This document shows, one piece after another, positions 4,611 through 35,818 of a DNA stretch of 64,000 nucleotides. The position numbers were made by a program, and so were the translations under genes. The stretch is taken from positions 3,378-67,377 of the forward strand of contig JAPPNA010000026.1 of the NCBI GenBank assembly GCA_028873925.1. Reading direction: 5' to 3'. Each line of letters starts with the position of its first letter. Positions within the stretch are counted from its first letter, which is position 1. The notes under the pieces were generated by a model. It saw only the letters and a program-made list of their open reading frames with translations, did no database searches and was not told the origin of the DNA. This DNA is from Bacteroidota bacterium. Its GTDB lineage: Bacteria > Bacteroidota > Rhodothermia > Rhodothermales > Bin80.

Positions 4611-4693
4611 TACCGGAGGTGGGACTCGAACCCACACGTCCGAGTGGACACAGGCTCCTAAGGCCTGCGCGTCTACCATTCCGCCACTCCGGC
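4611..4693 (-). tRNA. tRNA-Leu (anticodon UAG), class II with long variable arm, no encoded CCA
   Basis: Hand-folded. Acceptor GCCGGAG/CTCCGGT, anticodon stem CAGGC/GCCTG with loop CTTAGGA, variable arm GTCC-ACTC-GGAC, T arm GTGGG-TTCGAGT-CCCAC. Confidence 0.9.
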
Positions 4694-31603: not shown

Positions 31604-31981
31604 TTAGCCCGACGTAGCGGGTTTGTGGGGGTAGGCCTCGCGTCTTCCCGAATCGCCCTCCTGGATGACGAAGTCGCGCCGGTCACGGTAAAGATGTGCT
31701 CGGTTCAATACGTAATCATGCTCCCGATCAAGGTTGATCGAATCCCAGTGCGTCATCAGCCAGTACTTATAGTCCCCGATGAACAGATAGGTGTTGGGTC
31801 TGCCAAAAAATGTGGCTTTCACGCCTTCGCCGGCACGGAGCCGGCAGCAGACCAGTTCAATGAGCTCCCGCTGGTCATCTTTGTGGCTCAGGACGTACTC
31901 ATGCGGCCATGTATGCCGATAGGTGACAGCTTCCCGCCACGGCGCGCGACCGATCAATTCGGTGATTTTCAAGTTCTCCAT
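31604..31981 (-). CDS. Hypothetical 125-aa protein with W-PHEY and YKYW-M...LNRA motifs
   Basis: The ATG at 31981 (MENLKITELIG) is preferred over the track start at 32083. It lies on the same strand, 180 nt upstream of the PD-(D/E)XK gene. I recognise the motif pattern from uncharacterised phage/island proteins but cannot name a family. Confidence 0.55.
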   Translation of the reverse strand: MENLKITELIGRAPWREAVTYRHTWPHEYVLSHKDDQRELIELVCCRLRAGEGVKATFFGRPNTYLFIGDYKYWLMTHWDSINLDREHDYVLNRAHLYRDRRDFVIQEGDSGRREAYPHKPATSG

Positions 31982-32237
31982 AAAACACGACTCTCTACAT
32001 CGGGCAAAATAAGGCCCGCCGCATTCTGCGTGGCATCGCCGCCTATCCCCGGGAGCTGGGATCAGGTTCCACGATCTGCTCAATTAGCTTTAAGTTCAGC
32101 CCGGATCCTTGTTCCGAGTTGTACGAGCTGCCGAGACCAATTCGTCACTCGTAGAGCAGGCGGAGCGTCCCTGTCTGGTCCGGGATTCGGACGAGTGCCA
32201 TTGACTCCACGGCAACACAGGACGGATTGAGCAGGTC

Positions 32238-32478
32238 CGGCACGGATTCGCGCCATCCTCCCAGCTAATGTCCATTGCAGCGGCCGCGAAACACCATTGG
32301 TACCTGTATCGGTCGCGTCACGGCCCTGCAGAAGCCGCAGCGCACCGCCGCAAGCCATCGCGGATTTGGTCTATCCTGCGGAACTTTGCAGGCGTAATAC
32401 CGTATGACACGAGCACCGTGGTGCATTTCAGTGCCAGCCTACGCAACTCAATGAACGACTAAGGCGCGCAGCGAATCT
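32238..32478 (+). other. Conserved ~240-nt leader upstream of panA copy 1 (copy 2 equivalent at 33338-33573)
   Basis: Shared blocks: GGCACGGATTYGCGCCATCCTCCCAGC, GCAGCGGCCGCGAAACACC, CCGCAGCGCNCCGCCGCAAGC, CGCGGATTTGGTC, GCAGGCGNAATACCGTA and ACTAAGGCGCGCAGCGAATCYATG. An indel breaks any common reading frame. Confidence 0.4.
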
Positions 32479-32973
32479 ATGTACAGCTCAGCCACCATTG
32501 CCGACTATTTCATTCACAAGGGCTCCCAGGAGAAGATCCGGCTGACACCCATGCAGCTGCTTAAGTTGGTTTACATTGCGCACGGATGGTATCTGGGCAA
32601 CCATGGCAAGCCTCTGATCTACGACGAGATTCAGGCGTGGCATTTTGGCCCCGTTATCCCTGTGCTGTATCACATGATCAAACACAACGGGCCCAAACCG
32701 CTCAAGACGTTTGTCCGCAGTCCGGATCGGGCCGGAAAGGAAGAGCTGCTGCCTGACGATGTTCAGCACTTCCTAAATTTGGTATGGAAAGAGTATCGCA
32801 ATTATTCCGGGTCCGAATTGTCTCAATTGACCCATCAGCCAGGTGCCCCTTGGGCCCAAGCCCGAAAGAAGCATCCGTATGCGCAGTACAATGTGCCGAT
32901 TTCCAATGACATAATTCAGGCCTATTACCGGGCGAAGGTGGAGCAGGCAAGGCAGGAGGTAGCCCATGGCTGA
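32479..32973 (+). CDS. Panacea/DUF4065 domain protein (SocA-like type II antitoxin, PanA)
   Basis: IADYFIHKG...LTPMQLLKLVYIAHGWYLGNHGKPLIYDEIQAWHFGPVIPVLYH is the DUF4065 signature as I remember it. Confidence 0.8.
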   Translation: MYSSATIADYFIHKGSQEKIRLTPMQLLKLVYIAHGWYLGNHGKPLIYDEIQAWHFGPVIPVLYHMIKHNGPKPLKTFVRSPDRAGKEELLPDDVQHFLNLVWKEYRNYSGSELSQLTHQPGAPWAQARKKHPYAQYNVPISNDIIQAYYRAKVEQARQEVAHG

Positions 32974-33307
32974 AGAGCCGGGTCCCATAGTGCAGGAGGG
33001 TTCAGACGAGTGGCGCAGTGCTGAGCCTGGCCCGTTGAACCAGGATGTCTTGTTTGAGCAAACGCTTAAACATGACGAGCAGCGGTATAAATTCCGCCAG
33101 TGGCAATCCTGGGCCGTATTTTCGGGCTTGACTCTATGGCTGTTGGTCGTGCTGGTTGCCCTATATAAGCAAGGAACGGGCGCAGTGGACCTTAGCGATC
33201 CGGTTCTGGTCGCCTTGGTGGTTTCCTGGCCTGGCGCGTTGGCGGCGTATCTTGTCCGAATGGCACGGTACGTATTCCCGGATCAGCCAAACAATCGGGT
33301 GGAGTAG
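32966..33307 (+). CDS. Small two-TM membrane protein, candidate PanA-associated toxin
   Basis: Its start overlaps the panA stop (ATGGCTGA at 32966-32973). Hydrophobic helices are WAVFSGLTLWLLVVLVALY and PVLVALVVSWPGALAAYLV. Confidence 0.6.
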   Translation: MAEEPGPIVQEGSDEWRSAEPGPLNQDVLFEQTLKHDEQRYKFRQWQSWAVFSGLTLWLLVVLVALYKQGTGAVDLSDPVLVALVVSWPGALAAYLVRMARYVFPDQPNNRVE

Positions 33308-33573
33308 TCCGATTCCCGTCCCAGGTTCGGAAGATTTCGGCACGGATTTGCGCCATCCTCCCAGCCGCGGTCCAGCGCAGCGGCCGCGAAACACCGAATA
33401 CGGATGGTGCCGGCATCAGTCGCACCACGGCTCTGAAGACACCGCAGCGCCCCGCCGCAAGCTAACGCGGATTTGGTCCTCCCATTGAAACTACGCAGGC
33501 GCAATACCGTACCATGCAATTTTCGGGATGCATTACAGCCAGCTTGTGGCTCACTAAGGCGCGCAGCGAATCC

Positions 33574-34056
33574 ATGTACAGCTCAATAACCGTAGCCAAT
33601 TTCTTCATCGCCAAGGGCCTCAAGGAGAAGATCCCACTGACTCCTATGAAGCTGCTGAAGCTGATATATCTTGCGCACGGGTGGTATTTGGGCAATCACG
33701 AGAAGCCCCTGATCTATGACGAGATTCAGGCTTGGCGTCATGGACCGGTTATTCCCGTGATCTATCACGCGGTTGAGCATATCGGGCCTAATCCGCTGAA
33801 GACGTATATCCGCAGCCCGTACCGTGCAGGTAGGGAAGAGCTGTTGCCTGACGACATTCAGCGCTTTCTGAATCGGGTGTGGGAAAATTATCGCGACTGG
33901 TCCAGTTCCGAATTATCCCATTTGACCCATCGGGTGGGTGCCCCTTGGGACCAAGCCCGTCAGAAGCATCCCAATGTGCAACACGATGTGCCGTTACCCA
34001 ATGAATCGATCCAGGCCTATTACGCAAGAGAAAGTGGAGATATTACGGCAGCGTAA
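33574..34056 (+). CDS. Panacea/DUF4065 domain protein (PanA copy 2)
   Basis: MYSSITVANFFIAKG...LTPMKLLKLIYLAHGWYLGNHEKPLIYDEIQAWRHGPVIPVIYH. The ATG at 33574 corresponds to the copy 1 start. Confidence 0.8.
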   Translation: MYSSITVANFFIAKGLKEKIPLTPMKLLKLIYLAHGWYLGNHEKPLIYDEIQAWRHGPVIPVIYHAVEHIGPNPLKTYIRSPYRAGREELLPDDIQRFLNRVWENYRDWSSSELSHLTHRVGAPWDQARQKHPNVQHDVPLPNESIQAYYARESGDITAA

Positions 34057-34070
34057 GCAGGAGACACCCA

Positions 34071-34444
34071 ATGCCTGACTCGTCAGCTGAACCTAGCTAA
34101 ATGGCATTGATACGCACGGGGATGTCATTCAGTACGATGCGCTTTCCGAAGAACTCAAGGATTTTCAGCAGCGGTACAAATCCCGCCAGTGGCGGGCGCG
34201 ATGGGTATTTTGTGCCCTATTCTTTTGGCTGTTCATTGTACTGGCCATTCTCGCTTTGCAGGGGCTAAAACTCGTGGAATATCGTGATTCAGTCCTGATC
34301 GCGCTGATCGTCTCCTGGCCCGGTGCCATGGCTGCGTACCTTTATTGAATGGCTCGGTACGTATTCCCAGTTCAGCCAAGGGTGTCGGCCAAACAGCTGC
34401 ACCTAATGACGCAGGCTCAGGAGAAATCGGACCCCAAAACGTAG
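34071..34444 (+). pseudogene. Decayed copy of the two-TM toxin
   Basis: The ATG at 34071 is out of frame with the TM-coding frame, which is open from 34097 (...QQRYKSRQWRARWVFCALFFWLFIVLAIL...LIALIVSWPGAMAAYLY*). TGA at 34346-34348 replaces CGA at 33257-33259 of copy 1, and homology continues to 34444. Confidence 0.7.
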
Positions 34445-34480
34445 CCGCCGTGAATCTGGACTCCCGCTAATACTGCCGCC

Positions 34481-35818
34481 TCAGGGACGCTGCCAGGGCA
34501 CACGGCCGGCCTCTTGGATGTATCCTCTCAGAGCCGCGGCGAGTCGGCGCAACACCACCGGCTCGGTAGGCGACAGATCAGTTGATTCAGTGGGGTCTAG
34601 ATCCAGATTGTAGAGCTCCATCGGTGCGAACGGGCTGTTCTGCAGGAGCTTCCACGGTCCATGACGCACCGCCTCAATGGTCTTTCCGTTGAACCGCAAA
34701 CCGCCTTCACGCCGGGAGAAGAACATCATCCGATCCGAAAAATCCTGCGGCGACCCCGCCAGCGTTGGCAGAAAACTTACGCCTTCAATGTAGTGCGTCA
34801 GCGGCACACCGCCGGCTTCAACCAGTGTGGGATAGATGTCCATTGTAACCAGCGGCACCTCAGATGTCACGCCTTCCTCAATCACGTCAGGCCAGGACGC
34901 GATCGCTGGCACACGCAGCCCACCCTCATAAACGCTCTGCTTGCCATCGCGCAATGGACCGTTAGAAGCCCCAACATTCAGCTGACCGCCGTTGTCGCTG
35001 ACGAAAAACACCAGCGTATTGTCGGAGAAGCCGTTGGCTAACAGTGCATTCAGCACCTGTCCAATGCCGTAATCCATATGCTCAATCAGTGCCACCAGAA
35101 GGGCGCGCTCCTCGCTGATGCCGCCCTCCCGCCGCATCACGTCCCTGAACCATTCTTCAGGTGGCTGAATCGGCGTGTGCGGGGCGTTGTAGGCGAGATA
35201 CAGGAAGAAGGGGGCCGGAGAGACAGTCCGGCTCTCAATGTACCGGACAGCCCACGCGCTGAAGAGGTCCGTAGCATGGCCTTCAGGTTTGATGACTTCC
35301 TCATTGTAGCGCATGTAATTGAGTCCGTGACGCAGGTGTGTGTAGTAGTCGTCCATCATGTCTCCCAGGAACCCCTCAAAGTGATCAAATCCACGGTCAA
35401 TGGGTCGATCAGGGGCCGCCAATCCAAGGTGCCACTTGCCAACCATGGCCGTGTGGTACCCGCGGCGGCGGAGCATCTCCGGGAGGAGTGTAACGTCAGG
35501 AGATAAGGCTCCCCAGTTGTTGGCCGCGTGCGTACGGATGACTCCCGGCACCCCGGCCATCGGAGGATACCGTCCGGTCAATAGGGAGGCCCGCGTGGGG
35601 GAGCATACCGGAGAATTGGCATAAAACTGCGTAAATCGCATGCCCTTGGAGGCGAGACTGTCCAGCGCCGGTGTCTGCATGTCCGCCGCACCGTAACTCC
35701 GCAAATCACCATAGCCCAGATCATCAACTACAATCAGGACAATGTTGGGCTGCTGGGCGTAGGCCGTACAGGAAAGCAAAAGCAGCAGCAGCGCGGACGC
35801 AGTTTTCTTGAGCATCAT
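34481..35818 (-). CDS. Sulfatase (arylsulfatase family)
   Basis: Signal MMLKKTASALLLLLLSCTAYAQ, NIVLIVVDDLGYGD and the CSPTR motif. The ATG at 35818 avoids overlap with aroB. Confidence 0.9.
   Translation of the reverse strand: MMLKKTASALLLLLLSCTAYAQQPNIVLIVVDDLGYGDLRSYGAADMQTPALDSLASKGMRFTQFYANSPVCSPTRASLLTGRYPPMAGVPGVIRTHAANNWGALSPDVTLLPEMLRRRGYHTAMVGKWHLGLAAPDRPIDRGFDHFEGFLGDMMDDYYTHLRHGLNYMRYNEEVIKPEGHATDLFSAWAVRYIESRTVSPAPFFLYLAYNAPHTPIQPPEEWFRDVMRREGGISEERALLVALIEHMDYGIGQVLNALLANGFSDNTLVFFVSDNGGQLNVGASNGPLRDGKQSVYEGGLRVPAIASWPDVIEEGVTSEVPLVTMDIYPTLVEAGGVPLTHYIEGVSFLPTLAGSPQDFSDRMMFFSRREGGLRFNGKTIEAVRHGPWKLLQNSPFAPMELYNLDLDPTESTDLSPTEPVVLRRLAAALRGYIQEAGRVPWQRP

Follow-up and report, generated by a model that had tools for sequence, protein, structure and literature searches.

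In the present study, we analysed a 64,000-nt stretch of DNA from a Bacteroidota bacterium of the order Rhodothermales (contig JAPPNA010000026.1, positions 3,378 to 67,377 of the forward strand; hereafter the 64-kb window, in which all coordinates below are given). Near its middle, two adjacent units each combine a gene for a Panacea-domain protein (panA) with a small open reading frame (ORF) for a protein with two hydrophobic helices (panT); the terms small ORF and window protein refer to that of unit 1 or unit 2. We consider it very probable that these are two tandem paralogous PanA/PanT toxin-antitoxin (TA) modules of type II, of which unit 1 is working and unit 2 is older and decaying as a whole. 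Judged by its sequence profile, the small ORF encodes a divergent member of an already described and experimentally validated PanT family, and not a new one.

Results

The starts of the two units (32238 and 33338) are spaced by exactly 1100 bp. Each unit is ~1.1 kb long and is composed of a leader of ~240 nt, a gene with a PF13274 Panacea domain and a small two-helix ORF, located as follows.

32238..32478 (+), leader of unit 1: non-coding; 79.5% identity to the unit 2 leader
32479..32973 (+), panA-1: stand-alone Panacea antitoxin gene, 164 aa; PF13274 E 9.7e-23
32966..33307 (+), panT-1 (small ORF-1): 113 aa; family hidden Markov model (HMM) 73 bits; two hydrophobic spans
33338..33573 (+), leader of unit 2: placed by alignment with the unit 1 leader
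33574..34056 (+), panA-2: Panacea domain ORF intact, C-terminal tail frameshifted; PF13274 E 3.6e-19
34071..34444 (+), panT-2 (small ORF-2): pseudogene, by alignment with the L004 ortholog described below

Conserved leader blocks of 28 nt and 19 nt are present in 2 copies each across the 64-kb window, where shuffled sequences predict ~0. Compared between the units, the leaders are 79.5% identical and the panA genes 75% (nucleotides) or 67.5% (amino acids); in the small ORF, the identity is ~69% in the core and ~50% in the 5' part (nucleotides). The tandem was recovered in three haplotypes from several samples and with different assemblers, and is therefore real and no assembly artefact. These results, together with the PF13274 matches and the hydropathy of small ORF-1, support an earlier note on this DNA, made from its letters alone, which had proposed a tandem duplication of a Panacea antitoxin with a two-transmembrane (TM) partner, in two units of ~1.1 kb with starts 1100 bp apart and each with a leader, a SocA/PanA-like gene and a two-helix small ORF. 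In about 90 related loci, the fetched flanks showed no second Panacea ORF; a tandem such as this one is thus unusual. A scan for sigma-70 promoters and terminators gave nothing above chance.

Both upstream genes matched PF13274 (SocA_Panacea, also DUF4065) well above its gathering cut-off of 25.7 bits, with 81.7 bits for PanA-1 and 70.2 bits for PanA-2, and the DUF4065 hit that the earlier note had required of the upstream gene was thus obtained for both. The panA-1 gene has a low non-synonymous divergence (dN) and a branch omega (the ratio of dN to the synonymous divergence, dS) of ~0.12. PanA-1 shares 41.5% identity over 97% of its length with the PanA of E. coli (WP_000287252.1) and phage PhiR47_1, and a sequence search of the PDB with PanA-1 gave no match. 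The start of panT-1 overlaps the stop of panA-1 by 8 nt through ATGGCTGA at 32966-32973. Such an 8-nt ATGnCTGA overlap is found in unit 1 and in L004, a syntenic locus of a related species, and ancestrally it was also present in unit 2. Unit 1 is intact, as the earlier note had stated, and the gene overlap suggests the translational coupling that it had described.

PanT-1 has two hydrophobic spans by hydropathy (residues ~46-69 and 79-99), and its N-terminal 45 residues carry a net charge of -5. In the AlphaFold2 model, whose predicted local distance difference test score (pLDDT) has a mean of 74 and reaches 82-90 in the hairpin, a disordered stretch (residues 1-25) is followed by a helix (26-71), a short loop and a second helix (78-103). 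The predicted layout is an acidic disordered N-terminus, a two-helix membrane hairpin and a terminal RYVFP motif, in agreement with the two TM helices that the note had expected. In a sister population (L001/L002, sample SAMN13943214), a single-base deletion at window position 33181 shifts the frame of small ORF-1; neither small ORF is intact in this population, and both panA ORFs are open.

The relatives of the small protein were found at the profile level. A word-indexed search with small ORF-1 returned only itself and its frameshifted allele, and 140 proteins at E<1e-3, mostly of 100-135 aa, came from an exhaustive search with a profile through 1.84 billion cluster representatives. The family architecture consists of a charged variable N-terminus, R-K-x-Y-A...W-L as TM1, G...LSDxVLIALIxTTTxNV as TM2 and a C-terminal KYLFP; the window protein carries the variant VVSWPGALAAY...RYVFP of TM2 and the C-terminus. 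No Pfam, NCBIfam, PADLOC or PHROGs family covers the window small protein, and other members gave scattered weak matches to curated models only. Kinship with SLATT proteins or holins was rejected, the matches being single, weak and scattered. In addition, tblastn of the family member P0099 against plasmid and phage collections gave no match.

The association with Panacea genes was reciprocal. In all 8 genome loci fetched through the small-protein motif alone (Cytophagales and other metagenome-assembled genomes of Bacteroidota), a Panacea ORF stands directly upstream on the same strand. Among 80 metagenome loci fetched through PanA, 66 had enough downstream sequence, and 37 of these have a family ORF directly downstream. 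The small-ORF homologues therefore adjoin Panacea genes, in line with the neighbourhood conservation on which the earlier note had made its proposal depend, and the locus has the two-gene, same-strand arrangement of PanAT systems.

Three membrane PanTs have been validated, from E. coli STEC O31 (cluster T3), Bartonella apis (T12) and Helicobacter sp. (T4) (PMC8832971). The E. coli pair is formed by PanT WP_000019185.1 and PanA WP_000287252.1 (Kurata et al. 2022, PMC8832971); this PanT is toxic and is neutralised by its own PanA (PMC8832971, Table 1, Fig. 5), and depolarisation and SYTOX permeability were seen for the E. coli and B. apis toxins (PMC8832971). The T3 and T12 toxins were described as having a charged N-terminus and then C-terminal TM helices (PMC8832971). 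Cluster T3 spans Bacteroidetes, Proteobacteria and Deinococcus, with antitoxin-then-toxin order and a stand-alone Panacea domain; many members have overlaps of -8 or -4 nt, and one from V. cholerae is marked 'Toxic' (PMC8832971 dataset). We found that PanA WP_000287252.1 is followed in complete E. coli genomes by WP_000019187.1 or WP_000019186.1 (182 aa), with a spacer of 22 nt to the small gene, as listed in the PMC8832971 dataset. Phage PhiR47_1 carries the same gene as this E. coli partner, annotated 'PanT toxin', and the E. coli PanT corresponds to phrog_13343, of 'unknown function'.

The family HMM, built from 168 members with the window's own subfamily excluded, scores small ORF-1 at 73 bits, the L004 ortholog at 76 bits and the E. 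coli T3 PanT at 49 bits, and composition shuffles reach at most 7.3 bits. The comparison of the family with the E. coli PanT by hhalign gave a probability of 92% (E 5.7e-7) and covered both TM helices. A direct comparison of a two-sequence profile from the window with another E. coli member was weak (probability 22%, E 1e-3). By this transitive, profile-level link, and leaving the original FlaGs clustering aside, PanT-1 belongs to the T3-type PanT family, and it has the architecture of T3 toxins in its N-terminal charge of -5, its two hydrophobic spans and its predicted hairpin. The earlier note had recognised no toxin family for the small protein; this did not hold, because the protein shares a profile with the E. 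coli PanT (73 and 49 bits), and the hhalign result likewise turns its candidate for a new PanT-type toxin into a relative of the validated T3 PanT. E. coli M8 (L019, NZ_CP019953.1, 3064407-3065263) carries a second, different pair of a Panacea protein and a family small ORF (WP_061892489.1 / WP_061892490.1), which follows closely on ssrA and a DinI-family gene and occurs in six complete genomes; WP_061892490.1 scores 42.5 bits against the family HMM.

Unit 2 carries three lesions, which are common to all haplotypes. In panT-2, a 16-nt deletion just 3' of the ATG at 34071 (relative to L004) has shifted the frame, and the homologous reading frame, open from 34097, is not in register with this ATG. 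A nonsense codon follows, with TGA at 34346-34348 in place of the CGA of unit 1 and of the L004 ortholog. The earlier note had seen both the lost register and the CGA to TGA change, and both were confirmed. Translated after repair, panT-2 scores 89 bits against the family HMM. Small ORF-2 is thus a true pseudogene. The third lesion is a 1-nt insertion near 34023, which frameshifts the last ~17-19 codons of panA-2, so that the present frame terminates in ARESGDITAA and a stop. The +1 frame still reads ...QEKVEILRQRKQETPNA and a stop, through to the TGA at 34076-34078; its tail can be aligned with those of PanA-1, L004 and L005, and its last letters form the ancestral ATGCCTGA overlap. Because the insertion ends panA-2 ahead of this overlap, the translational coupling of unit 2 is lost.

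None of the three haplotypes has an interruption in the ORF of the panA-2 Panacea domain. In this domain, the substitutions unique to one lineage number 15 for PanA-2, 3 for PanA-1 and 4 for L004, and the acceleration was supported by the Tajima relative-rate test with L005 as outgroup (p≈0.02). The three-taxon branch estimates of omega are ≈0.5 on the PanA-2 branch and ≈0.12 on the others. With a frameshifted C-terminus and accelerated protein evolution in panA-2, unit 2 looks like a module that is decaying as a whole. The earlier note had called panA-2 full length, which the frameshifted tail contradicts. Its orphan antitoxin retained beside an intact pair stands as far as the Panacea domain is still open, but was overstated in view of the same frameshift and the faster evolution.

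The syntenic L004 locus lies on a 3.7-Mb contig, with the gene order TamB, GH2/SASA, variable genes, panA, small ORF, sulfatase and DHQ synthase. It carries one unit only, whose 129-aa small ORF is intact and overlaps panA through ATGTCTGA. In the core, this small ORF shares 84% nucleotide identity with the panT-2 remnant, at a dS of 0.59, and three flanking genes compared between the window and L004 have a dS of 0.54-0.62. Since the dS of 0.59 equals the divergence of the species, unit 2 is the ortholog of the L004 unit and the copy at the ancestral position. Small ORF-1 and small ORF-2 differ by a dS of ≈1.3, which places the duplication before the split from the L004 species; unit 1 is absent from the L004 lineage. 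The history of panA is less clean, with a dS of 0.84 for unit 1 against unit 2 and of 1.2 for unit 2 against L004; recombination or gene conversion may have been involved, which 160 codons are too few to resolve.

Discussion

By homology with the E. coli T3 PanT, free PanT-1 would insert into the inner membrane and dissipate the potential or permeabilise the membrane. PanA-1 may neutralise it by direct binding to the cytoplasmic N-terminal and juxtamembrane region. The analogy is to B. choladocola, for whose stand-alone PanA direct neutralisation via the region ahead of the TM segment was shown by mutagenesis (PMC10440598). Unit 2, the older syntenic copy, is in this reading decaying as a whole: its toxin gene is dead, the coupling is lost and PanA-2 is under relaxed constraint. 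The most diverged part of the units is the N-terminal regions of PanT-1 and PanT-2, and each PanA is reportedly specific to its cognate toxin (PMC8832971); thus, cross-neutralisation by PanA-2 cannot be assumed.

Several points weigh against this interpretation. The identity to the E. coli toxin in the hhalign alignment is ~15%, and for this reason PanT-1 is regarded as a toxin on the strength of profile-level homology. In unit 2, the indels of 1 nt and 16 nt are called from three or four homologous sequences only. The neutralisation model stems from a T12 toxin, and the tested T12 member fails to match the family found here. Furthermore, panT-1 is frameshifted in the sister population, and the module is therefore dispensable.

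PanA-2 could instead have been kept as an orphan antitoxin, either for anti-addiction or cross-neutralisation against PanT-1 or incoming PanTs, or as a neofunctionalised sensor, with its fast evolution and new C-terminus being adaptive. The open Panacea domain in three haplotypes with its Pfam match of 70 bits, a branch omega of ~0.5 that is below 1, the conserved leader upstream of panA-2 and the sister population with both panA genes open and both small ORFs broken all fit such a role. However, the C-terminal frameshift, the loss of the overlap and the 4-5-fold excess of unique substitutions give the picture of early pseudogenisation, and a branch-averaged omega of 0.5 is compatible with past constraint followed by neutrality. 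The toxin N-terminal regions, which are the likely PanA-binding part, are ~40-50% identical in DNA, and the reported specificity for cognate toxins (PMC8832971) speaks against cross-neutralisation. We therefore regard a maintained PanA-2 as unlikely.

It is also conceivable that the small two-TM protein is no toxin here and, without doing harm, partners or anchors in the membrane a Panacea protein that has another role, e.g. phage sensing. The second helix of the window subfamily has SWPGA instead of the TTTxN of most family members, some predicted PanTs were non-toxic or un-neutralised in E. coli (PMC8832971, SI Figs. S4, S6), ten non-toxic systems were reported (PMC10440598), and some populations lose both small ORFs and keep panA. 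Against this, the family contains a validated toxin, a V. cholerae T3 member is marked 'Toxic', the genes run from antitoxin to toxin with a conserved 8-nt overlap, and it is typically toxin genes that are inactivated alone, repeatedly and independently, as the small ORF is here. A non-toxic partner is thus, in our opinion, highly unlikely, and we prefer a working TA module in unit 1 next to a decaying one in unit 2.

Among the known systems, the PanAT of E. coli STEC O31 resembles the present one in having a stand-alone Panacea gene followed on the same strand by a gene for a small protein whose N-terminus is charged and whose C-terminal part has two TM helices. The toxin described here is shorter (113 aa versus 182 aa), pairwise identity between the two is low, and the second helix reads VVSWPGALAAY, whereas that of the E. 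coli PanT is of the LLGTSTISIVG/TTTxN type. The E. coli pair is located in a lambdoid prophage region beside PrtN-family and exonuclease VIII genes, while the window pair is in a chromosomal variable islet, and the tandem duplication is a feature of the latter, unlike the E. coli system. The PanAT of Bartonella apis/choladocola (T12 / NetFlax node D11) is of the same class, a stand-alone PanA with a small membrane toxin, and no other PanAT has a structural model of neutralisation that was put to the test; in this model, from B. choladocola, Panacea touches the stretch ahead of the TM segment (PMC10440598). Homology of the family to T12 was rejected, as D11S_2262 of Aggregatibacter phage S1249 scored 6.5-7.3 bits, at the level of shuffles. 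Chromosomal orphan antitoxins have been proposed as anti-addiction modules, e.g. the chromosomal ccd of Erwinia against that of the F plasmid. The resemblance to these is that an antitoxin ORF persists beside or without a functional toxin; unlike them, panA-2 is itself frameshifted and its constraint is relaxed.

Overall, the locus reveals no new mechanism, and its value lies in a dated decay series and in the metagenomic extension of the T3 family. The T3-type membrane PanTs would gain a divergent environmental subfamily (SWPGA...RYVFP), and metagenomes hold far more of this toxin family than the published cluster suggests. As an example of PanAT decay, the locus shows the loss of the toxin first, then of the coupling and then of the antitoxin tail, and the sister population, with the second toxin frameshifted too, represents the next step. 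In addition, the locus supplies paired natural PanA and PanT variants for comparison of specificity.

Leader sequence and genomic context

The identity of the leaders (79.5%) exceeds that at panA synonymous sites, which is ~49% (proportion of synonymous differences, pS, 0.51). The leader is non-coding, as indels break every reading frame. It matched no Rfam family, either at gathering thresholds over the whole window or in a permissive search of 31900-34600. A widespread element was rejected, because nhmmer against ~100 fetched loci found the leader in the same species only and it is absent upstream of the L004 ortholog; an unusually stable RNA was likewise rejected on folding z-scores of +0.8, -0.2 and 0.0 against shuffles. 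The leader ends form an imperfect inverted repeat, through which the 5' end can pair with the AUG and the 8 nt before it, and this long-range helix is present in the minimum-energy folds of both units. The conservation may be due either to lineage-specific purifying selection on a regulatory leader or to gene conversion between the units. It could be that the leader acts as a new regulatory RNA in cis, with the panA start hidden in the long-range helix, and that PanA-2 is a maintained, neofunctionalised antitoxin or sensor expressed from it, which would make the tandem a regulated circuit of two antitoxins and one toxin and not a decaying duplicate; we consider this combination quite unlikely.

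A patch of the unit 1 leader (32395-32418) is hypervariable, with 7 substitutions in 24 nt between haplotypes, compared with ~1% differences elsewhere. With the window as reference, most of the substitutions are G>A and T>C, and gene conversion from unit 2 was rejected as their source because, by inspection, the variants are not consistently unit 2-like.

Conserved genes of the housekeeping type flank the small variable islet that holds the tandem, and the islet fits a hotspot for defence genes or mobile cargo. Directly upstream, a 449-aa PD-(D/E)XK protein (PF14281; 30074-31423, minus strand) matches the PADLOC candidate defence system PDC-S26 (E 9e-25), and an ORF of 125/159 aa without a family (31604-32083, minus strand) adjoins its gene; in the L004 genome, two different genes occupy the same spot. 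Elsewhere in the window, the model of the group II catalytic intron (RF00029) matches at 613-694 on the plus strand with 54 bits, against a gathering score of 40, and a tRNA gene (Rfam RF00005, 59.8 bits) is located at 4611-4693 on the minus strand.

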